64,000 bases of DNA from Candidatus Parcubacteria bacterium (GTDB lineage: Bacteria; Patescibacteriota; Minisyncoccia; Sungbacterales; SURF-37). Under the pieces are notes generated by a model. It had not been told where the DNA came from. It ran no database searches and worked only from the letters and a program-made list of their open reading frames with translations. A program made the translations under genes and the position numbers. Shown here one piece after another: positions 6,451 to 24,428 of the stretch (positions are counted from its first letter, which is position 1; each line of letters starts with the position of its first letter). The stretch lies in the NCBI GenBank assembly GCA_003599755.1, contig QZJO01000011.1, positions 2,424-66,423 on the forward strand, read 5' to 3'.

Positions 6451-7425
6451 TTACACGGCACCGCGCTTCCGAGCTTCTATGGTCGCGAGTTTCTGTCTGA
6501 TGGCGCGCATGCGTTCGGGATCGTGAATGGAAAACGCCGTGACGTTCGGGTTCAGATTCCGCAGGGATGCGATTTTCTTTTCCAGATCCGAGGCGTCTTT
6601 GGTATCGCTTTTAGAAAGGAGCACATGTTCTTCTTTTTCGGTCAGGCCCCGGGCATACGCGCCAAGTTCCGCGCGGACCGTGCGGTAATCGCGGACCGGA
6701 TCATCGGATTCCGCGCTGATGAGATGGAATAGCGTCCGCGTGCGCTCAATATGCTGCAGGAATTTTGTGCCCAATCCCTTTCCGCGCGAAGCGCCTTCGA
6801 TGAGCCCCGGGATATCGGCAAGAACGAGTTCGCCGAACGTACCGAGATTCGGCTCGAGCGTGGTGAATTCGTAGTTCCCTACTTTGGCCCGCGCGCGCGT
6901 GAGTTCATTGAGCAGGCTCGTCTTTCCGGCATTCGGCAGGCCGACGAGTCCGATGTCGGCAATGAGCTTTAATGAAAGACGGAGCGAATAATGCTGACCG
7001 GGCTTTCCGTATTCGAATTGTTTCGGCCGCGTGTTGGTGGAGGAGCGGAAGTGGAAATTCCCCCTGCCGCCGATGCCGCCGCGTGCGACGAGTACTGGCT
7101 TTCCGAGGGTGATGATATCGTAAGTTGCCCCGTTAGTGAGGTTCTCGATTGTCGTCCCCATGGGGACGGACAGCGTTAGATCTTTGCCGTCGGTGCCGTC
7201 GCGGCTTTGTCCGCGGCCGTCGCCGCCGTTGTCCGCCGCAAACACCTTTTTATACCGATAGTTCCTCAATATGCCGAGGTCCGATGATCCGATGAAATAA
7301 ATACTCCCGCCCTTCCCGCCGGATCCACCGACCGGGCCGTATTGATGCAGATTTTTATTGAAGCGGACCGCGCCTTTGCCGCCATCTCCGGCGCGGACCG
7401 CGATAGTGATGTCATCGATGAGCAT
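6451..7425 (-). CDS. obg: GTPase Obg/CgtA
   Basis: Obg fold N-domain (AGDGGKGAVRF, GG repeats) and G domain (GLVGLPNAGKTSLL, DIPGLIEGA). Start chosen at MLIDDITIAVRAGDGG to match the canonical Obg N-terminus; the ORF track starts at 7449. Confidence 0.9.
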   Translation of the reverse strand: MLIDDITIAVRAGDGGKGAVRFNKNLHQYGPVGGSGGKGGSIYFIGSSDLGILRNYRYKKVFAADNGGDGRGQSRDGTDGKDLTLSVPMGTTIENLTNGATYDIITLGKPVLVARGGIGGRGNFHFRSSTNTRPKQFEYGKPGQHYSLRLSLKLIADIGLVGLPNAGKTSLLNELTRARAKVGNYEFTTLEPNLGTFGELVLADIPGLIEGASRGKGLGTKFLQHIERTRTLFHLISAESDDPVRDYRTVRAELGAYARGLTEKEEHVLLSKSDTKDASDLEKKIASLRNLNPNVTAFSIHDPERMRAIRQKLATIEARKRGAV

Positions 7426-8875
7426 ACGCTGCCAGGTCGAGATAGTCATCGATCCGGATACTCTTGAGGAAATCCGGAACGTGACTGATAAGGATCATCG
7501 CGCCCGCGTATTGGTCGAGCGCCTGGGCGATTACGGGAATATGGCGGAAATTAATGTGATTGGTCGGCTCGTCGAGCAGAAGAAGGCCGGGTTTCTGGAG
7601 GACGAGCCGCGCAAACGAAAGCAAGCCCTTTTGTCCCTCCGATAAGCTCTCGATACGGTTTTGCATAAGCTCGCCGGTGATGAGAAAGCCGGCCGCCACC
7701 GAGCGGAGCTTTTGCTCGTCCGGCTCGCTCATGACCTCCGCGAGCGTCGCATAGACGGTTTTGGAAAAATCGAGCGTCGAAAAATCCTGGCCATAGTAAC
7801 CGACTCGGACGCCCGGGGCGACAGCCGCGCCGGGTGCGGTACCGGCGGCCAGCGCCTTGACGAGCGTACTTTTGCCGATGCCGTTCGGCCCCGTGATGGC
7901 CAGGTGCTGGTTCTTGCCGAGTTCGATGTTGGCCGGATACGAATGCGGCGCGTCGTCCCGCATCGCGGAAACGGCGGTTATGCGTATGATCGCGCCGACG
8001 AGATCCTCTTGGACGGGAATGACGAACGGCCGGATGGTCTTGTCGTCGCGGCGCACATCCACCATCGCTTCCTCGAGCTCTTCGGCTTTCTCCCGCATGC
8101 GCGTGGCAACCAGACGCATCTGCCCGCCCTTGAACGCGAATTTATTCGCCTGTTCTTTCTTCTCTTGAATGGTTTTGAGCAGCTGGGCGTTTTTGCGCTG
8201 TTCTTTCTCGATGCGCGCGGCGATCTGGTCTACCACGGCGAAATAGTTGCCGACGTATTGCTCGATCTGATGGGTAAACGAATCAAGATAGAGTACGCCC
8301 TTGGTGAAAGCATTAAGGAAATTGGCATCATGAGAAATAACTACGCACGTTTTTGGATAGTCGATCAAAAATTGTCGCAGATGCGCGATACCCGCGGCAT
8401 CGAGATTGTTCGTTGGCTCGTCCAAAAGCAGGAGGTCGGGGTTTTGAATAAGCGCTGATGCGAGCAGAAGCCGCGCCTGTTGGCCGCCCGAAAAACTGCT
8501 GATGAGCCGATCGTGGCCGGCCTTGAGGTTCACCGTTTCCAGTACTGCGTCGATGCGCGGATCAATGTCATATACCTTGTTCGGAAAGCACGCCTGGAAG
8601 AATTCGCGCACGGTGAATTGCATCTGGCCGCGCGAGATGACCTGCGGTGCGGTTGCGATGGTGATATTCGGTTCGCTATGGATTGCGCCCGATTCGGGCG
8701 CCAATGATCCGGTAATGAGCTTGAACAGCGATGTCTTGCCCGCGCCGTTTTGGCCCATGAGCGTGAGTTTGGCGCCGGTGCGGAGCGTAAAGCTAACCTC
8801 GTGCAGGACAGGTTTCTTCGGTCCGTAGCCGAACGTTACGTTTTCGAATCTGGCGATGATATTGCCGCGCGCCAT
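7412..8875 (-). CDS. ABC-F family ATPase (tandem ABC domains, no TM domain)
   Basis: Two Walker A motifs (GQNGAGKTSLFK; GPNGIGKSTLVK), two signature/Walker B regions and an inter-domain linker. Overlaps the obg start by about 14 nt. Confidence 0.85.
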   Translation of the reverse strand: MARGNIIARFENVTFGYGPKKPVLHEVSFTLRTGAKLTLMGQNGAGKTSLFKLITGSLAPESGAIHSEPNITIATAPQVISRGQMQFTVREFFQACFPNKVYDIDPRIDAVLETVNLKAGHDRLISSFSGGQQARLLLASALIQNPDLLLLDEPTNNLDAAGIAHLRQFLIDYPKTCVVISHDANFLNAFTKGVLYLDSFTHQIEQYVGNYFAVVDQIAARIEKEQRKNAQLLKTIQEKKEQANKFAFKGGQMRLVATRMREKAEELEEAMVDVRRDDKTIRPFVIPVQEDLVGAIIRITAVSAMRDDAPHSYPANIELGKNQHLAITGPNGIGKSTLVKALAAGTAPGAAVAPGVRVGYYGQDFSTLDFSKTVYATLAEVMSEPDEQKLRSVAAGFLITGELMQNRIESLSEGQKGLLSFARLVLQKPGLLLLDEPTNHINFRHIPVIAQALDQYAGAMILISHVPDFLKSIRIDDYLDLAAYAHR

Positions 8876-11890: not shown

Positions 11891-13561
11891 TTACGCAGCC
11901 AATGCGCCATGCTGCTCCGTTTTCAGCCGGGCCAACGTTTTTGCGTTCCATTGCTCGCTTTTGAGTACGCGCGCGATCCATTCCCCGCCGAGCGTATGCG
12001 GCATCATGACGAAGTCGGCCCCGTGCTGGTAGAGCGCCGCGGCGTCGGCCGCGTGGTAGGCATTCGCAATGATAAGCGCATCTTTGTTGGACTTGCGCAC
12101 GAACTTCATCAAGTTGATCTGGTCATCCACGGCCGGGATGGTCATGATGACGATTCTGCTCGCGGCGATCGACAGGCCTTCCAGAAATTCAATATCGGCG
12201 ATATCGCCGAAGTAAAACGGGATATCGGCTTTGCGGAGCCGCGCGACGGCGGCCGGATCGAAATCGACGACGGCAAAATTCGTTTTCAGATCAGCCATTG
12301 CCTCGGCTACTTTCATGCCGATGCGGTGATAGCCGATGATCCAGGCGTCATACTGTTCGGGGGCGCGATCTTGCTGGCGGTATTTGTCTGGTCCGAATCG
12401 GCGGAAAAACGGCAGAAGCATGCGATAGATTTTCTCGTTATAGGAAATCAGATACGAAGAGGCGAAAATGGTGGCAATGGCTACGGCCGTGAAAATCGCA
12501 ACCTCGTCGCCCTCGATGTGCCCGGCCTGCCGGCCGGCGAACAAAAGCACGAACCCGAACTCGCTGACCTGTGCCGCGGTCAGGCCGGCCAAAAAGCTGT
12601 TGCGCCGCGTAAAGCGCAACGTCCGAAACAATATATAGAGGATCAACGGATTGCCAATAAGAATGAAGAGCGAGAGTACGATGGCCGGTGTCGCGATGGT
12701 CTCGAGCGAGCTGAGGCCCATTTCGCTGCCGAGCACGATGAAAAAGAGAATCAAGAAAAAGTCGCGCAGGGGCCGGATGCGGCTCGCGATTTCCAATTGG
12801 TACGGCGACGAGCTCAGCGCGATGCCGGATATGATCGCGCCGATCTCGAGCGAAAATCCGAGCGCGTAAAGCGTGCTTGCCACGCCGAAGCACCAGGCAA
12901 GCGTGAATAGGAATAAGAGTTCGCTCGAATCGGCGATTCTGTCGAGTAATTTCGGCAAAAGATATCTACTCGCCAGATACAAAACGCCGGCTATGGCCGG
13001 GAGCATCACGATCATCGTGCCAAGATCACTTCCCCCGCTCGCCCGTTCGCCCTGGATCATGCCGAGCGCGATCACGAGGATAACGGCGATCACGTCCTGC
13101 ACGAGCATGAGGCCGATGGTATGGCGGCCGTACATGGTGTCGGTATCCTTTTTGTCCGACAGCAATTTCATGATGATGATCGTGCTCGAAAACGTGATGG
13201 CCACGGCCAAATAGAGCGCGGCTACCAGCGGCATGCCCAGCATCAAAAGCAGCACCGTGCCGATGCTTGCCGTGAAGATTACTTGGCCAAGCCCCGTGAT
13301 GAGGGATACTTTGCCGATGGATTTGAGGTGGTTGAAGTTGAGGTTCAGTCCGATGATGAAGAGCAATAGCACCACGCCGAATTGCGCGAATGTTTCATAC
13401 AGTTCATGGTCGCCGTGGAAGAGATTCAGGATGAACGGGCCGGCGATGATGCCGGCGAAAATATAGGCAACGATCAGGGGTTGGCGGAGCAGCTTCACGG
13501 CAAAAGCAACGCCGACCGTCACCGCCAAAAGCAAACTGGTTTGTACGAAAATGCTATCCAT
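11891..13561 (-). CDS. Monovalent cation:proton antiporter-2 (CPA2, Kef-type) with C-terminal RCK/TrkA-N domain
   Basis: About 12 TM helices followed by a Rossmann-type TrkA-N region (WIIGYHRIGMKVAEAM...VVDFDP). Confidence 0.8.
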   Translation of the reverse strand: MDSIFVQTSLLLAVTVGVAFAVKLLRQPLIVAYIFAGIIAGPFILNLFHGDHELYETFAQFGVVLLLFIIGLNLNFNHLKSIGKVSLITGLGQVIFTASIGTVLLLMLGMPLVAALYLAVAITFSSTIIIMKLLSDKKDTDTMYGRHTIGLMLVQDVIAVILVIALGMIQGERASGGSDLGTMIVMLPAIAGVLYLASRYLLPKLLDRIADSSELLFLFTLAWCFGVASTLYALGFSLEIGAIISGIALSSSPYQLEIASRIRPLRDFFLILFFIVLGSEMGLSSLETIATPAIVLSLFILIGNPLILYILFRTLRFTRRNSFLAGLTAAQVSEFGFVLLFAGRQAGHIEGDEVAIFTAVAIATIFASSYLISYNEKIYRMLLPFFRRFGPDKYRQQDRAPEQYDAWIIGYHRIGMKVAEAMADLKTNFAVVDFDPAAVARLRKADIPFYFGDIADIEFLEGLSIAASRIVIMTIPAVDDQINLMKFVRKSNKDALIIANAYHAADAAALYQHGADFVMMPHTLGGEWIARVLKSEQWNAKTLARLKTEQHGALAA

Positions 13562-14696
13562 GGCGTGCTGCCAGTTCGCGAGCGCGTCCCTCTTGCATCG
13601 GATGACGAGTTGGAATAACGATACGGAAAACTACCCCGGTTTCTTTTCCTGGCGGCGGGCTTTCGAACCAGATCTTCCAGCCGAAATGGTCGGTGATCAA
13701 TTTCACGAGATAGAGGCCAATGCCGCTGCCGGATGATTTGCGCGCTTCGGCGCTTTTGGTGCGGTAGACGCGCGTGAAAATTTTGTCTCGTTCATCCGGG
13801 AGAATGACGAGGCCGTTATTCTCGCACGAAAATAGAAACCCCTCGTCGTTGCGGACGAGTCGGACTTCGACGCGGCCGTTGCCCGGATCGCAGTATTCAG
13901 CCGCGTTCGAGATGACATTGAAAAAGACGATGAGGGCAAGCTGGCGTTCCACGGTGATAACGGCCGGCTCGCTGGGCTGTTCGAACGAGATATGAACCGT
14001 GGGATGCGCTTTTTGAACCTCTGCGATAATCTTGGTGATTTCTTCTTCGAGCCGGAGCGGTTCCTTACCGGATACGGCGCCCTGCAGGCGGCTTGCGGCA
14101 AGAAGGTCAGTAACGAAGTAGATCAGGTCCTGATTTTTGCGATATACCTCGTCGAGAATCTCACGGTCTTTCGGGTCGAGCTTGCCGCGCAATCTGAGCC
14201 AGTCAAGCAGCCATTTCGTGGCGGTGAGCGGATTTTTCAGCTGATGTCCGACGATGGAGATGAATTCCGCGCGGAATGCCTCCTGCTCCTTCCGGTCGGT
14301 GATGTCGGGCTCCACGCCGATGAAGAATCGGACGTTTCCTTCTTGATCAAGAATCGGCGCGATATGGAGCTCCTGCCAGTAGTGCGTTCCGTCTTTTCGC
14401 GTATTCTTCACTTCGCCGACAAAGGGCTCTTTGGTTTCCTTAATCGTGCGCCACATATTCTCATAGAATGCCTGCGGCATCTCGCCGCCCCAAAGATCCC
14501 CCGGATTCTTTCCGATGATTTCGCTGATCGGGAAACCAGTGCGCTCCTCAACGGTTTTGTTCGCATACAGAATATTGGCATTCGCGTCGGTGATGACGAC
14601 GTGATCGCGCAATAAATCGAATCCGCGTTTGAGCGGCTCGATTTCCCGCAAATATGTTTCGAGATCGGCTCGCGAAAGCGGAGTACGGATAGCCAT
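13554..14696 (-). CDS. PAS-domain sensor histidine kinase (cytoplasmic)
   Basis: PAS core shared with 5782-6366. HisKA H-box FISIVGHQLKNPL. HATPase_c region (N, G1/G2 boxes: NAAEYCDPG..., GSGIGLYLVK). The 3' end overlaps the Kef gene start by 8 nt. No response regulator in the window. Confidence 0.85.
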   Translation of the reverse strand: MAIRTPLSRADLETYLREIEPLKRGFDLLRDHVVITDANANILYANKTVEERTGFPISEIIGKNPGDLWGGEMPQAFYENMWRTIKETKEPFVGEVKNTRKDGTHYWQELHIAPILDQEGNVRFFIGVEPDITDRKEQEAFRAEFISIVGHQLKNPLTATKWLLDWLRLRGKLDPKDREILDEVYRKNQDLIYFVTDLLAASRLQGAVSGKEPLRLEEEITKIIAEVQKAHPTVHISFEQPSEPAVITVERQLALIVFFNVISNAAEYCDPGNGRVEVRLVRNDEGFLFSCENNGLVILPDERDKIFTRVYRTKSAEARKSSGSGIGLYLVKLITDHFGWKIWFESPPPGKETGVVFRIVIPTRHPMQEGRARELAARHG

Positions 14697-14707
14697 GGTC
14701 CGGATTC

Positions 14708-15619
14708 CTATTTGAGAATGCAGTTTTTATATGTTTCGCCGCCGCCGGCTTCGGTGATGAATGCCGTATCGCCTTTGTTCCAGAACACGAACGACTCGTC
14801 GGCTTTGGCATAGCGCGCGCCGGAAGCCGATAGCGCGCGCGGCACGGAAAGTTTTCTGCCATCGCTCAGCACGAGGTCGACGTACTTGTCGTCTCCGATG
14901 TAGAACGACGCTTGGATGGTTCTATCGTCTGCACACTGGAAGGTGACGGTCTTGGGCTGGGTCGCCGTGCAGTACTGCTCCCAGCTGCGCTCGCAGGCCT
15001 GGCGCGCTTCGCACCAGGAGTAACCGGCAGCAATCAGGCAGCCGTGCTCGTCCGTTTGGCCGCCGATGGTTTGATCATTGATGTCTTTGAGTTGCATTGC
15101 CTCGGCATCCAGTATGAGCCGCGCGCTTTTACCGACCGACGGCCGTGCCGTCATGGGTTCGCCCGGTTGGCGATCGGCGTAGTTTACGACAATGGTATTT
15201 CCCGGGCCCGATTCGATGGTTTGGGGCGCGATGCGGTCCCCGAGCAGAAATGCCTGCGAGCCGACGTATCCGGTTTCGGTGTTGAGCGCCGCGACAACGT
15301 AGAAAAACGTCCCCGATCCCCCGGTCTCTTGCGTCAGAAGGAACGCTACGTCTTCCCGCCCGTCACCGTTCAAGTCCTTGCGGACTTCGTTGCCGAAGTA
15401 GCGCGTGACGATTTTCGACGCAGACCCCGGAGCCGCTTCCAGCTCCGATATGCCGTTTGCCAGCGTAATCACGCGGCCCTCGATCACGTACGTCGCATCC
15501 TTTTCGCTCGCCGCCGGGCGCTGGTCGCCCTGCTTTTCGGTGTAGATATAGTCATTCAGGAAGTAAAATCCGCCTACGATGAGCACCACCACTACGATTG
15601 CCCATAACAGTATTTTCAT
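14708..15619 (-). CDS. N-terminally anchored extracytoplasmic protein with C-terminal MliC-type (membrane-bound lysozyme inhibitor of C-type lysozyme) domain
   Basis: Signal/anchor helix. C-terminal TVTFQCADDRTIQASFY...LSVPRALSASGARYAKADESFVFWNKGDTAF...C matches the MliC/PliC SxSGAxY core with flanking Cys. Upstream is a Cys-rich segment (CLIAAGYSWCEARQACERSWEQYC). Confidence 0.65.
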   Translation of the reverse strand: MKILLWAIVVVVLIVGGFYFLNDYIYTEKQGDQRPAASEKDATYVIEGRVITLANGISELEAAPGSASKIVTRYFGNEVRKDLNGDGREDVAFLLTQETGGSGTFFYVVAALNTETGYVGSQAFLLGDRIAPQTIESGPGNTIVVNYADRQPGEPMTARPSVGKSARLILDAEAMQLKDINDQTIGGQTDEHGCLIAAGYSWCEARQACERSWEQYCTATQPKTVTFQCADDRTIQASFYIGDDKYVDLVLSDGRKLSVPRALSASGARYAKADESFVFWNKGDTAFITEAGGGETYKNCILK

Positions 15620-16131
15620 ACCTGTTCGTATTGTACTTGGATAATACCATGCTCCAATTTTTGGACCGATTTGAACTGCAACGACATGGTGAAATCCCTG
15701 TGCGCGAATACGGGTTTTCCCGCACCGACGATCACCGGCTCGATGTTGAAAATAACCTCATGAACAAGCCCTGCCTGCATGAATGCGGAATTCACCGTCG
15801 GGCCGCCGCCGACGAGGACGGATGCTATCCCCTGCGCTGAAAGTTTTTGCAGCGCGTCTTCCGGCGAAGCGGCAGCAATGAACCCCGTTTTCAGCTGATT
15901 GGGCCGGGATGTTATGACGACGCGCGGAATATCGGCCAGATCATCGAAACTGTAATCGGCATCCCAACTCGCTACCGTCTCCAATGTTTTCCGGCCGATG
16001 ATGAGCGCTCCCTTCTCCCGAGCAAGAGCGCAAAATACGGTCCAGTTGGCATCTGAAATAAAATCCTCGCTACCGGATTCATCGGCCACGAAGCCGTTGA
16101 GCGACATGGCCATGAATAACGCGACGCGCAT
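15616..16131 (-). CDS. Dihydrofolate reductase-family protein (RibD C-terminal domain type)
   Basis: MRVALFMAMSLNGFVADESG...LIIGRKTLE...VLVGGGPTVNSAF; start trimmed to ATG 16129-16131. Paralogous to 16789-17385. Confidence 0.7.
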   Translation of the reverse strand: MRVALFMAMSLNGFVADESGSEDFISDANWTVFCALAREKGALIIGRKTLETVASWDADYSFDDLADIPRVVITSRPNQLKTGFIAAASPEDALQKLSAQGIASVLVGGGPTVNSAFMQAGLVHEVIFNIEPVIVGAGKPVFAHRDFTMSLQFKSVQKLEHGIIQVQYEQV

Positions 16132-16190
16132 AGCTGAAGCATCGCGCAAATCCAAAACGCCCACAAGGGGCGTTTTGGCATCCCGTTATG

Positions 16191-16745
16191 TTATTGGAAC
16201 GTCACCGTACCGAGGATCGTATCGAAGTCCTCGAGGATCATATCCTTGTCGGTGATCCAGGTGACCGAGAATACATATGCGTTGTTGCCGTAGCTGACGA
16301 TGACCGATTTGCCGGCATAGAGGCCGTCCCATCGGTATTCGAGGCCGGAGATTCCGCTTACGGTGCGCCCAACAGGCGTCTGCGGGAAATTCTTGATCCA
16401 ATTGGTGCTCTGCTGCAGCCAGGCATCCGGGGCAAGATTATTCGGATTGGCGTATACGTCGATGGTTATCGAGGTCGGCCCTTCGCTTTGGCCCGAAGCG
16501 CGGCCTTCGAGATAATCCCGGTTTGCCTGGGTATCTTCGATCAAAACGACGCCGTCGGCATTCTCTTTGAGATAGTAGCCCTTCGGATACTGAAAACTGA
16601 ATCCGTGCGAAGCCGATGCGTGCGACTGGAGCTTGTCGGTGCCGTTATTGGCCTGCTTTTCGGCGTAGATATATTGATTGAGCGCGTAAAAACCGCCGAG
16701 TGCCAGCGCCGCAATGACGATTACTGCGATGAGTGTTGCTTTCAT
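16191..16745 (-). CDS. N-terminally anchored extracytoplasmic protein, unknown function (N-terminus paralogous to the MliC-domain protein)
   Basis: MKATLIAVIVIAALALGGFYALNQYIYAEKQ versus MKILLWAIVVVVLIVGGFYFLNDYIYTEKQ at 15619. Remainder has beta-rich composition with no recognised family. Confidence 0.55.
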   Translation of the reverse strand: MKATLIAVIVIAALALGGFYALNQYIYAEKQANNGTDKLQSHASASHGFSFQYPKGYYLKENADGVVLIEDTQANRDYLEGRASGQSEGPTSITIDVYANPNNLAPDAWLQQSTNWIKNFPQTPVGRTVSGISGLEYRWDGLYAGKSVIVSYGNNAYVFSVTWITDKDMILEDFDTILGTVTFQ

Positions 16746-16788
16746 ATGCTTGGATATACGAGGCCGCCGAGCCGGCGTAACAACTCGA

Positions 16789-17385
16789 TCAGAACGATCC
16801 GGTTTTCACCTCTCCCGCCCGTTCGTAGTTGGCGACAATCACGCCTTTGGGCGATGTTTTCGAATCTTTGAGCGTGAACGCCGCCGGGATCGTGCCCTCG
16901 CCGAACAAGCGTTTTCCCGGTCCCAGCGTGACCGGGAATATTTTCAACCAAAACTCATCCACGAGGTCGTGCTGCAGAAGCGTCTGGATGAATTCGCTGC
17001 TGCCATGCACTTGCAGCTCGGGACCATCTCCCGCCTTGAGCTGCTTCACCGCTTCGACGACATCACCGGCCAGAAGCACGGAGTTCTCCCATTCGGGCGT
17101 CAGCGGCGAATGCGAGGCAACGTATTTTGCCGCCTTATTAAGCGCGCTGCCTTCTTCCGGGTGATGCGGCCAGTACGATGCGAATATGTCGTAGGTCTTT
17201 CTGCCGAGCAAGAGGGCAAAGGGATGGCCCATTTGCTCGTCCATGACGTTGCCGAGAAATTCGTCGAAATACGGGACGGTCCAGCCGCCGTATTTGAACC
17301 CGCCGGAGGTATCTTCCTGGGGGCCGCCCGGCGCTTGCATGACGCCGTCGAGGGAAATGAACGTAAGGACAATGAGTTTGCGCAT
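16789..17385 (-). CDS. Dihydrofolate reductase-family protein (RibD C-terminal domain type), second paralog
   Basis: MRKLIVLTFISLDGVMQAPGGP...LLLGRKTYDIF...LQVHGSSEFIQTLL is the typical YyaP/RibD_C signature. Confidence 0.75.
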   Translation of the reverse strand: MRKLIVLTFISLDGVMQAPGGPQEDTSGGFKYGGWTVPYFDEFLGNVMDEQMGHPFALLLGRKTYDIFASYWPHHPEEGSALNKAAKYVASHSPLTPEWENSVLLAGDVVEAVKQLKAGDGPELQVHGSSEFIQTLLQHDLVDEFWLKIFPVTLGPGKRLFGEGTIPAAFTLKDSKTSPKGVIVANYERAGEVKTGSF

Positions 17386-17503
17386 AATGGGGTGGTATGG
17401 GTATTAGGAGATTGTTGGGGTCTTTACAGTATAGCAGACCGAGGCAGGTCGGAAGCATTACCGTCCGGGACAAGGGGTGCTTCGGGACGCCGAATCCGCT
17501 AGA

Positions 17504-18370
17504 ATGGCCGCGATGGGTTTCCGCCGAAAGAATGGAATTCTGGTTGTAGCTATGGCTGCGATACTGGCAGCCGCTTTTGTGTTGGTTCGACTATCGCGCG
17601 AACAGGCCCCGCCGCCAGTCGCATCCTTGGCGGGTTCGGACCAAGAAGAACCGTCCGGATGCGGCCTCCCCGATACCCCGCCCGAACAAGGGCCGCTGTC
17701 GAAATACGTCGAAATCATCGATTCATGCGGCCCCGATTTCGAAGGGGCGTGCGTCAATGCGCGCACCCGGCCCGATACGTCTGCCCCGGTGGCGGCGCGT
17801 TTGCGAACCGGCATCGTTCTGAAAATTTCGGATACCGTCGTCGGTGATGGCCGATCGTGGTATCGCATCGCGTTCGATGAGGCAATCCGTTATCCCGAAC
17901 GGATCACCAGCGAATGGTATATTACCAGCGAGCACGCGCATCTCATTGAAATTCGAGGCGTTGAAGAACTCCTCGGCGATGCGGTGATAACGACGGAAAA
18001 AGAGATCATCGTGGATCTTTCCGAACAGAAACTGTACGCGTACGAACGCGATGCACTCATCGCCGAAGAATACGTCTCAACCGGCGTGCCGGAGGCCCCG
18101 ACGCCGCGCGGTCCATTCCGCATCTACAAGAAAATGCCGTCGCGCTATATGCAGGGTCCGCTTCCCGGCATTTCGGACCAATATTTCGATCTGCCGGGCG
18201 TGCCGTGGAATCTTTATTTCACGGAACAGGGCGGTGCGATCCATGGCACCTACTGGCACGATCAATTCGGGAAGCGCTGGTCGCATGGCTGCGTCAATCT
18301 TCCGGTCGGGGCCGCAAAGACGCTCTACGAATGGGCGGATCTCGGAACGCGGGTCATCGTGCGCGACTGA
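17504..18370 (+). CDS. L,D-transpeptidase (YkuD domain) with N-terminal anchor and SH3-like domain
   Basis: Catalytic HGCVNLP motif near the C-terminus. SH3b-like segment (TGIVLKISDTVVGDGRSWYRI). TM helix near the N-terminus. Exact start is uncertain; the ORF track begins at a GTG at 17477. Confidence 0.8.
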   Translation: MAAMGFRRKNGILVVAMAAILAAAFVLVRLSREQAPPPVASLAGSDQEEPSGCGLPDTPPEQGPLSKYVEIIDSCGPDFEGACVNARTRPDTSAPVAARLRTGIVLKISDTVVGDGRSWYRIAFDEAIRYPERITSEWYITSEHAHLIEIRGVEELLGDAVITTEKEIIVDLSEQKLYAYERDALIAEEYVSTGVPEAPTPRGPFRIYKKMPSRYMQGPLPGISDQYFDLPGVPWNLYFTEQGGAIHGTYWHDQFGKRWSHGCVNLPVGAAKTLYEWADLGTRVIVRD

Positions 18371-18726: not shown

Positions 18727-19644
18727 CTATTGGCCTCCGTAGGCCTTCTCGAGCGCTGCAACATCGAACTTCTTCATGGGGAGGAACGCTTGGGTCACGC
18801 GGTTGATCTGCTCGGGCGTCCCCCGTTCCATCATCTCCCCCATCCGGTCCGGCACGATCTGCCACGAGACGCCGTATTTGTCTTTCAGCCAGCCGCATTG
18901 CTCGGCCTCCGGAACCGCCGAGAGTTTTTCCCAGTAATAGTCGATCTCCGCCTGATCTTCGCAGTGGACGATCATCGAGATGGCTTCGTTGAACGAGAAA
19001 TCATGCTGGCGCGCGCTGGCATCCATCGCAGCAAACCACTGTCCGAGAAGCTTGAAGTCAGAAAACATAATTGCACCCTCCTTGTTCGGTTCCATGCCGG
19101 CAGGATATCGCGCGATCGCGCCGCGTTTTGCATCCTTAAATACCGAGAGATAAAAGTCGGTCGCTTCTTCGGCAATTTCACCGGTGTCGCTTACAAACAT
19201 CAGAGTAGGGATGATGAGCGGCCGCTCTTCCCCTTCCGGATTCGTAAAGATCAGTTGCCACGAGAGGCCATAGCGATCCTCCACCCAGCCGTAGCGTTCG
19301 CTAAAAGGATATTTGTCCAGTGGCATCAGAATTTTTCCGCCTTCGGTGAGTTTATTCCATACTTGGTCTATTCGTGCTCTCGCGTCGGTATCCTGGGACG
19401 GATCGAAGTTGACCATGAACGAGATCGACGGGTTGAATTTGAACAAGGGCCCCGCGCTAATTGCCTGAAACGAATAGCCCCAAAGATCGAACGAGACGAC
19501 ATCAACGTCTCCCGACGGCGTGTCGTGGAGCGCGGTGACGTTCGTGATACTCGACTGGGGAAAGAGCGACGTATAGAATTCGGCCGCCTCTTTTGCCTCC
19601 TTGTCGAACCAAAGATGCGGAACGATTTTTTGCTTGCGCAACAT
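18727..19644 (-). CDS. VOC/glyoxalase-superfamily protein of the PhnB / 3-demethylubiquinone-9 3-methyltransferase-like type (tandem domains)
   Basis: N-terminus [18 protein letters not shown] is the typical PhnB-like start. Second repeat ...[23 protein letters not shown]... Confidence 0.65.
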
Positions 19645-23977: not shown

Positions 23978-24048
23978 TGGGGAGTCGTCTAATGGTAGGA
24001 CATCGCCCTTTGGAGGCGAGTATCGGGGTTCGAATCCCTGCTCCCCAG
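23978..24048 (+). tRNA. tRNA-Gln (anticodon UUG); CCA not encoded
   Basis: Hand-folded cloverleaf: acceptor UGGGGAG/CUCCCCA with U1:A72 and G73 discriminator (as in bacterial tRNA-Gln), D stem GUCU/GGAC, anticodon stem UCGCC/GGCGA with loop CUUUGGA, T arm CGGGG-UUCGAAU-CCCUG. Confidence 0.7.
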
Positions 24049-24428
24049 CAACACATCGGTGCAGTGAGTGTTGACTCCCCACGCCGCAACATGGCACTAT
24101 CGTTGGGTCACGTTGCAATTCGATCTGAAAGAATTTGCGGGCGTTTGTCGGGCGTCCGCCGCATACCAATAGCGCATGTATTCGCATATGATTGACGCAA
24201 TCATTCGCGCAGAGGGTGACGACCAGACCGAACAGGGCGAGGAAACCAAGGAAGGGGGCGAATCGTCCGAAGAGAGCAAATAGGCCAATCCCCGCGCCGG
24301 AATCCGGCGCGGGGATTGCGTTTGGCCGTCACTCTTGGCGGAAATCCGAAATCCTAAAAGCGTTTTGAATTTTTGATCATTCGATACTGTTTCGAGTTTC
24401 GATATTCGTGCTTCGGATTTTATACATG

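Follow-up and report, generated by a model that had tools for sequence, protein, structure and literature searches.

A run of four minus-strand genes in a 64 kb stretch of a contig from a Candidatus Parcubacteria metagenome-assembled genome (MAG) alternates between two cytoplasmic reductase-like enzymes of the RibD_C family and two proteins exported on N-terminal signal-anchors, here called anchored proteins A and B. The whole 64 kb stretch is referred to as the window, and all coordinates are window positions unless a locus in another genome is named. An earlier reading of this DNA, the original prediction, took the run for a tandemly duplicated two-gene module with a role in envelope defence. 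Our comparisons indicate otherwise: the duplicated reductase plus exported-protein module is not a real unit, and the alternating order is a local accident of this genome. What the locus holds is, with good probability, a pair of modular envelope proteins, of which one probably inhibits a muramidase, lying among unrelated cytoplasmic genes with which they alternate here by chance.

Results

The four genes and their pairing in other genomes

All four open reading frames (ORFs) were found where the original prediction had placed them. In their order on the minus strand, they encode RibD_C-B (16789–17385, 198 aa), a YyaP-like cytoplasmic protein of the RibD_C/dihydrofolate reductase (DHFR)-like family; anchored protein B (16191–16745, 184 aa), in which an N-terminal signal-anchor precedes an extracytoplasmic domain assigned as PsbP/Mog1-like from an AlphaFold2 (AF2) model and Foldseek; RibD_C-A (15616–16131, 171 aa from its ATG), a short RibD_C/DHFR-like protein of the subfamily found in the candidate phyla radiation (CPR) and DPANN; and anchored protein A (14708–15619, 303 aa), made up of a signal-anchor, a Patescibacteria-specific beta-rich domain, a four-Cys module and an MliC domain. 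The RibD_C-A ORF can be extended to a GTG at 16164; its homologs and the NCBI model begin at the ATG, so the shorter coordinates are right. Exact database matches for window proteins bear the locus tags C4552_03505, C4552_03510 and C4552_03515 and come from a Candidatus Parcubacteria MAG, in keeping with the earlier guess at an epibiont-type bacterium. No other ORF in the window matches RibD_C, and no other carries the anchor motif GGFYxLNxYIYxEKQ. The four-gene alternation is real, and random placement within this genome would not produce such an order.

We examined the pairing from each of its sides. At least 552 loci of the protein A family are present in species-representative genomes, nearly all labelled Patescibacteria, and 80 of these were searched with 10 kb flanks, together with 80 metagenome loci of B-type RibD_C, four distinct contexts of A-type RibD_C and five MliC-bearing relatives of A or B. 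A RibD_C gene was found within 10 kb of an A-family gene at two of the 80 loci (L026 and L064), in both cases B-type and in differing arrangements, and A-type RibD_C at none. Conversely, no ORF with an A-domain, B-domain, MliC domain or anchor motif was seen near B-type RibD_C (0/80), no gene of these kinds was seen in the A-type contexts (0/4), and none of the five MliC-bearing relatives had a RibD_C neighbour. When the ORFs within 3 kb of A-family genes were clustered, no family occurred at more than 9 of the 80 loci; Gmad2-type anchored proteins were among the most frequent neighbours. B-like and A-like genes do stand adjacent or nearby at two loci (L029 and L008), with no RibD_C between them. 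A conserved two-gene cassette is rejected on these counts, and the functional partnership of reductase and exported protein that had been proposed is not supported, the pairing being without synteny conservation from either side.

The two reductases do not behave as copies made in this lineage. RibD_C-A and RibD_C-B are 25% identical over 133 aa, whereas RibD_C-A shows 67% identity to homologs from metagenomes, 47% to one from Moranbacteria and 43% to one from Nanoarchaeota, and RibD_C-B has relatives at 59–73% in 80 metagenome contigs with GC contents of 34–75% and at just 52% in the two Parcubacteria loci L026 and L064. Because each protein is so much closer to genes elsewhere than to the other, the split between them is ancient and did not arise by duplication here. 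The ectodomains of A and B are unrelated folds, as described below, and we therefore reject tandem duplication of the module.

Protein A and its MliC domain

The C-terminal part of A (14714–14941, aa 227–302) scores 53.2 bits over aa 227–294 with the Pfam MliC model (PF09864; gathering score 22), at E = 2.9e-14, which bears out the MliC assignment made earlier. The NCBIfam equivalog for MliC stays far below its cut-off (31 versus 168 bits). Sequence matches in the PDB include P. aeruginosa MliC (PaMliC) in complex with hen egg-white lysozyme (HEWL) (3f6z, 3.4e-4) and E. coli YdhA (2f09, 7.4e-4), and further Brucella PliC (4mir, 4mis and 4ml7) and Salmonella PliC, with 3oe3 also among the matches.

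The MliC/PliC family is defined by the motifs SxSGAxY and YxxxTKG, its subgroup 1 carries FWSKG, and S89 and K103 of PaMliC contact lysozyme (PMC6033465). Mutagenesis of SliC found SxSGAxY and the lysine of xWxKG to be required for inhibition, and both are visible in the PaMliC–HEWL complex (PMC6033465). Within SGxxY it is the serine that enters the active site of lysozyme (PMC6033465, PMC8334348), and this residue is critical (PMC8334348). In A, SASGARY (aa 264–270) aligns with ISASGAKY of PaMliC and ISASGARY of E. coli YdhA, and FVFWNKG (aa 277–283) aligns with YIWWTKG and YVFWSKG; in the second motif F stands for Y and N for T or S, and K282 and G283 are retained. C229 and C300 flank the domain. 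At the level of sequence, A thus has what defines the family, namely the profile match and both motifs. Its predicted localisation departs from that of classical MliC, with a transmembrane (TM) signal-anchor in place of a lipobox or a free periplasmic form. A has no lipobox, since there is no Cys in its first 193 residues, and no AxA site follows its TM helix. The four-Cys module that had been noted ahead of the MliC domain is present (14969–15040; C194, C203, C209 and C217) and gave no credible Pfam match; the same module precedes MliC in one relative (P0002).

Between the anchor and the four-Cys module lies the N-domain that gives the family its identity (15080–15508, aa 38–180). It is beta-rich, contains an FG-GAP-like loop (DLNGDGRED) and is modelled by AF2 with a predicted local distance difference test score (pLDDT) above 90. 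Sequence searches against Pfam, NCBIfam and the PDB gave no match for it (FG-GAP_3 appears just at 0.067–0.14, below cut-off), and Foldseek returned nothing from the PDB at E ≤ 1e-3, the weak fold matches being propeller-like only. In a PDB profile search, matches were confined to the META part. The family has 6334 homologs at E ≤ 1e-3. Among its best 120 matches, a tally of Pfam columns gives META/HslJ as the C-terminal domain in about 86, no further domain in about 25, MliC in 8 and Gmad2 in 1. The placement of MliC relative to the N-domain also varies, being N-terminal to it in P0002 and P0005 and C-terminal in P0013, P0025 and the window protein. By these comparisons, A is a member of a very large, uncharacterised Patescibacteria family, in which the usual META domain is replaced here by the four-Cys module and MliC.

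Other members of the family show further variation. The N-domain, with its DxNxDGxxD loop, occurs twice in P0007, and two A-domain genes stand in tandem at L024 (10001–10546 and 10584–11513 of that locus). At L053 (10001–11413) a tblastn match to A spans two frames, the N-domain being followed by an ORF with MliC and a third domain; the explanation is a frameshift or a pair of gene calls that overlap, and the locus adds another partner domain for MliC. That third domain also stands alone at L008 (854–1519) and is fused to a B-domain in P0224. Some carriers of A-family genes (L061, L063 and P0048) are labelled Marinobacter, Vicinamibacterales or Anaplasmataceae, and many others bear a generic "uncultured Candidatus Saccharibacteria" label; the odd taxon labels probably reflect mis-binned or mislabelled contigs.

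Protein B

The sequence of B has no Pfam match of its own. Its AF2 model has a pLDDT of 80 overall, with the blocks of the domain (16194–16631) mostly at 80–96, and searching the PDB with this model by Foldseek returned PsbP (6e-7, probability 1.00), BT_1490, the type VI secretion system (T6SS) immunity protein Tsi3 (2.5e-5), Apa and LpqN, over a range of 6e-7 to 5e-4. A word-indexed search found only 11 relatives of B; searching with a profile recovered 1256 from a set of 1.84 billion representatives. Pfam PsbP_2 (PF18933) is matched by 43 of the 150 best B-family representatives, which agrees with the structural assignment. Members of the family are fused with MliC (P0125–P0129 and P0165), META (P0180 and P0211), Gmad2 (P0215 and P0294) and further domains. 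MliC itself also occurs with the third domain of L053 or alone (L016). The modelled ectodomain of B thus has a predicted PsbP/Mog1-like fold, and the B family is a second one that fuses with the same partner domains as A. Because this fold class includes a muramidase immunity protein and the family fuses with MliC, a related binding role for B is suggested by analogy.

The shared anchor

Signal-anchor topology is supported for both exported proteins. The anchor of A (15530–15619) is a TM helix continuing into GGFYFLNDYIYTEKQ; in the AF2 model, a continuous helix spans aa 2–30 and runs through LNDYIYTEKQ to residue 30. The anchor of B (16653–16745) is a TM helix with GGFYALNQYIYAEKQ at its end. 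In both, the helix ends in the juxtamembrane motif G-F-[FY]-x-L-N-x-Y-I-Y-x-E-K-Q, encoded at 15530–15574 in A and 16653–16697 in B. The near-identity of the two anchors and the divergence that follows them hold as first described, with 18 of 34 residues shared (BLASTP E = 1e-7) and nothing beyond.

Among the outcomes that would undermine it, the original prediction had named an anchor similarity explained by generic signal-peptide composition together with a lack of synteny conservation. Synteny conservation is indeed absent, and by that standard the cassette idea fails, although the anchor similarity goes beyond generic composition. Across 66 A-family sequences, F18, N22, K29 and Q30 are at least 90% conserved, and a strict regular expression for the motif matches 36 of the 82 ORFs of the family in the loci analysed. 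The motif occurs as well on a few unrelated envelope proteins of Parcubacteria, Gmad2-only and Cys-rich (L015, 15686–16264; L021, 16679–17275; L019, 13949–14593), and on a PsbP-like subclade, YIYxEKQ being found in just 3 of the 150 best B-family representatives: B itself, P0180 and P0267. It corresponds to no model in NCBIfam or Pfam. Being family-wide in A-type proteins and present on others, including P0180 and P0267, the motif needs no local duplication to explain its occurrence on both A and B. Judged from its distribution, it is a module common to a handful of envelope families, neither a matter of generic signal-peptide composition nor a sign of local duplication, and it may be an undescribed sorting or assembly signal.

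The reductases and the surrounding genes

Both reductases match Pfam RibD_C (PF01872) over their full length, RibD_C-A at 2.8e-25 (89.7 bits) and RibD_C-B at 1.1e-23 (84.5 bits) against a gathering score of 24.1, so that the family assignment made earlier holds for each. Among the NCBIfam equivalogs for RibD, the archaeal reductase and DfrA, the best score of RibD_C-A was 44.6 versus 150 bits (ribD_Cterm), and RibD_C-B had no match; Pfam DHFR_1 gave RibD_C-A 14.4 against a cut-off of 25. Identification as a RibD/RibG pyrimidine reductase or a true DHFR (FolA/DfrA) is not supported, as no equivalog or DHFR_1 cut-off was reached. Both proteins are predicted to be cytoplasmic NAD(P)H-type reductases from different subfamilies.

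The recurrent partner of RibD_C-B is a PhnB-like gene, represented here by a two-domain 3-dmu-9_3-mt protein (18727–19644, minus strand; Pfam 8e-73). In L116, L108, L111 and L137 the gene just upstream of B-type RibD_C is of this kind, and L136 and L102 also contain one; in L116 (900–2413) the two copies are 70% identical to the PhnB-like gene of the window and 68% identical to RibD_C-B. At L064 the RibD_C gene stands among VOC, PhnB and DUF1801-like small proteins, and second RibD_C paralogs adjoin B-type genes in L131, L137 and L143. Since the window copies are closer to those on contigs of varied GC content (68–73%) than to those of other Parcubacteria (52%), acquisition of the RibD_C-B/PhnB small-protein cluster by horizontal transfer is suggested.

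Between the PhnB-like gene and RibD_C-B, a divergent plus-strand gene (17477–18370) encodes a YkuD L,D-transpeptidase with an SH3 domain (Pfam YkuD 1.3e-25; SH3_3). A YkuD homolog was found near an A-family gene at just one of the 80 loci (L009). One A-family locus (L006) offers a direct comparison: there, a META-type A gene, with an N-domain 63% identical to that of A, comes straight after a PhnB-like gene that has 74% identity to the window copy. Set against L006, the window carries about 3.1 kb of additional DNA, a block made up of RibD_C-B, B, RibD_C-A and the YkuD gene on the other strand, and A ends in a different C-terminal domain. Such a difference would be consistent with insertion of the block into an L006-like order.

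On the other side of A, a gene for a soluble PAS histidine kinase (13554–14696) starts 11 bp after the end of A and shares its final 8 bp with the beginning of a gene for a Na+/H+ exchanger with a TrkA_N domain (11891–13561). Because these genes continue it, the same-strand run extends well past the four genes considered here. About 6 kb from A lies an ABC-F-type ATPase gene (7412–8875), whose homologs, 62–67% identical, occur no more than 10 kb from an A-family gene at 20 of the 80 loci; this recurrence points to some loose conservation of the chromosomal surroundings of A-family genes. A tRNA-Gln(TTG) at 23978–24049 is the sole Rfam or ARAGORN match in the window.

Discussion

The prevailing view of CPR/Patescibacteria is of cells attached to those of other organisms, with an exposed, Gram-positive-like wall and very small genomes. 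We propose that A and B are membrane-anchored proteins of the wall zone, belonging to a Patescibacteria-specific domain-shuffling system. The signal-anchor of A would sit in the membrane and present MliC in the wall zone, where the SGxxY loop (S266) and the lysine of xWxKG (K282) would occupy and so block the cleft at the active site of a muramidase of lysozyme type; A would act at the surface of a cell with exposed peptidoglycan and no outer membrane. B would display its PsbP/Mog1-like domain on the same type of anchor. RibD_C-B would go with the upstream PhnB-like gene in a small-protein cluster found in many phyla and possibly horizontally acquired, and RibD_C-A is a short form of the CPR/DPANN type.

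Several observations weigh against this reading, most of them concerning local linkage. Within this genome the alternation of reductase and anchored genes is tidy, and it takes in the sole two RibD_C and the sole two anchor-motif genes in 64 kb. The stop of RibD_C-A overlaps the start of A as ATGA (4 bp), RibD_C-B and B are on the same strand with a spacing of 43 bp, and a minus-strand hairpin (16152–16178) between the B stop and the RibD_C-A start separates the two pairs. The hairpin, CCAAAACGCCC-CUUGU-GGGCGUUUUGG followed by AUUUG, has an 11-bp stem flanked by an A-tract on its 5' side and a U-tract on its 3' side, and its minimum free energy of −26.6 kcal/mol (z = −3.9) was matched by none of 200 shuffled sequences. 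It was found by eye and by folding, and a consensus terminator scan did not list it; it is probably an intrinsic, possibly bidirectional, terminator. Because of the ATGA overlap and the hairpin, it is probable that each reductase shares a transcript with one of the anchored proteins; two bicistronic units are plausible in this genome, and this would fit a local functional link. The codons of shared anchor residues are identical in 12 of 17 cases versus 7.8 expected (P = 0.03), hinting at a DNA-level common origin of the two 5' ends, and the motif DNA of B is closest to that of A (37/45 nt, versus at most 34/45 to other species). The B-type RibD_C genes of L026 and L064 are no more than 4 kb from the A-family gene, which would be notable if few Parcubacteria carry the gene. 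As regards the MliC domain, whose family has an eight-stranded antiparallel beta-barrel with a closing disulfide, AF2 predicts eight strands at aa 223–302 of A with a pLDDT of only ~40–60, low because the alignment is shallow there; as regards what the domain might bind in nature, c-type lysozymes are made by animals, and the organism is one of groundwater or the subsurface.

The order of the genes, the excess codon identity, the hairpin between the pairs and the ATGA coupling within one of them could all be accommodated by tandem duplication of an ancestral RibD_C plus anchored-protein unit, with divergence of the copies and replacement of one ectodomain, leading to an envelope-defence cassette. 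We regard this as highly improbable: at 25% mutual identity, against 43–73% to other lineages, the split of the RibD_C pair long predates this genome, the pairing is absent from the 80 + 80 + 4 + 5 contexts save for loose proximity in L026 and L064, the ectodomains are of unrelated folds and the anchor motif is family-wide. Recent gene conversion between the anchors within this genome, which the codon and nucleotide figures (P = 0.03; 37/45 nt) favour weakly, is weakened by the motif in P0180 and P0267, and we rejected it. The spacing within pairs, the shared strand, the probable terminator and the B-type RibD_C genes near A-family genes in L026 and L064 would also suit a lineage-specific operon formed without duplication, in which a reductase product (for example a reduced pterin or flavin-type cofactor or a signal) serves an envelope function. 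Such an operon seems very unlikely, however, since the same-strand run goes unbroken into the PAS histidine kinase and Na+/H+ antiporter genes, co-occurrence is not conserved and the recurrent partner of RibD_C-B is the PhnB-like gene. CPR genomes are, moreover, densely packed with long same-strand runs, and we know of no biochemical link between RibD_C enzymes and MliC or PsbP-like proteins. We leave a small probability for genome-specific co-expression or an old recombination between the 5' ends; neither would rescue a conserved cassette.

If A and B are, as we favour, modular envelope proteins beside unrelated genes, the role of the MliC domain still has to be weighed. It might serve not in defence against exogenous lysozyme but in regulating the cell's own peptidoglycan hydrolases or in binding another ligand. 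The animal origin of c-type lysozymes and the groundwater or subsurface provenance of the source and related MAGs speak for this, as does the alternation of the domain, within the A family, with META and Gmad2, which are of no known function. Brucella PhiA has the MliC fold and inhibits neither HEWL nor SagA in vitro; PhiA, however, lacks SGxxY, whereas A keeps SxSGAxY and the lysine of xWxKG (PMC6033465, PMC8334348). The retained active-site-plugging loop argues for a lysozyme-like glycosidase as the target, whatever its origin, and we consider a role outside defence somewhat unlikely, though it deserves real weight. Since c-type lysozymes belong to animals and the record titles of A-family relatives name groundwater, sediment and soil, the target may be a microbial or phage enzyme, or an endogenous hydrolase that is regulated.

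A broader scheme may be entertained, though we think it rather unlikely as a whole. The FxxLNxYIYxEKQ anchor would display interchangeable beta-domains (A-domain, PsbP-like, MliC, META, Gmad2 and Cys-rich) as a wall shield of Parcubacteria that neutralises, by binding, the peptidoglycan hydrolases that hosts, competitors or phages produce. Its one recognisable inhibitor would be MliC and the PsbP-like domain a second, Tsi3-like one, and the anchor would possibly be a sorting or assembly signal for a dedicated partner.

The MliC, RibD_C and PsbP-like families are already known, and automated annotation labels some proteins of these kinds. New are the TM-anchored multidomain MliC architecture in a Parcubacterium, its uncharacterised partner domain, the juxtamembrane motif and the domain-shuffling network. 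A literature search found no paper linking MliC or META proteins with CPR, and one on the functions of RibD_C paralogs was uninformative. A complete lysozyme-plugging motif set, in a family with at least 552 loci in species-representative genomes and a conserved anchor, gives a testable entry to envelope defence in Patescibacteria and bears on the role of MliC domains where animal lysozyme is lacking. The tidy alternation of genes, for its part, should not be propagated as a "cassette."

Comparison with known systems

The window reductases resemble the RibD_C/"dihydrofolate reductase family protein" paralogs (YyaP/YwjB-like), matching PF01872 end to end, and differ from the named RibD, archaeal reductase and DfrA enzymes in reaching none of their equivalog cut-offs. 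B-type RibD_C occurs in PhnB/VOC small-protein clusters, as in many bacteria.

Protein B shares the predicted fold of its ectodomain with the PsbP/Mog1-like proteins, among them cyanobacterial PsbP, BT_1490, mycobacterial LpqN/Apa/MTC28 and Tsi3. Unlike these, B is TM-anchored and lies below Pfam detection, and functional residues are not transferable; its likeness to the muramidase inhibitor Tsi3 is at the level of fold only.

The closest relatives of A by family are the META-domain (HslJ-like, PF03724) proteins of Patescibacteria, which have the same anchor motif and an N-domain 45–65% identical. The META-type copy in L006 sits directly after the PhnB-like gene, where A would sit without the intervening block. 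In A the META domain is swapped for the four-Cys module and MliC, a combination whose MliC part is seen in just 8 of the 120 best matches.

By its C-terminal ~76 aa, which score above the Pfam gathering threshold, A resembles the MliC/PliC family (COG3895), which includes E. coli MliC/YdhA, P. aeruginosa MliC, Salmonella and Brucella PliC and Neisseria SliC. It shares with them SxSGAxY, a subgroup-1-like FW(S/N)KG with the key Ser and Lys, and two flanking Cys. Classical MliC is a small periplasmic protein or lipoprotein of Gram-negative bacteria, whereas A is a 303-aa multidomain protein with an uncleaved TM signal-anchor from a Parcubacterium. In A, MliC comes last, after an uncharacterised 140-aa domain and the four-Cys module, and its inhibitor activity is putative. 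The nearest multidomain precedent is M. tuberculosis LprI (LprI/DUF1311 plus MliC), likewise a membrane-tethered multidomain MliC protein from outside the classical Proteobacteria (PMC7933661). The two differ in the partner of MliC, helical in LprI and a beta-rich Patescibacteria domain in A, and in the tether, a lipobox in LprI and a TM helix in A; LprI belongs to a host–pathogen setting with animal lysozyme.

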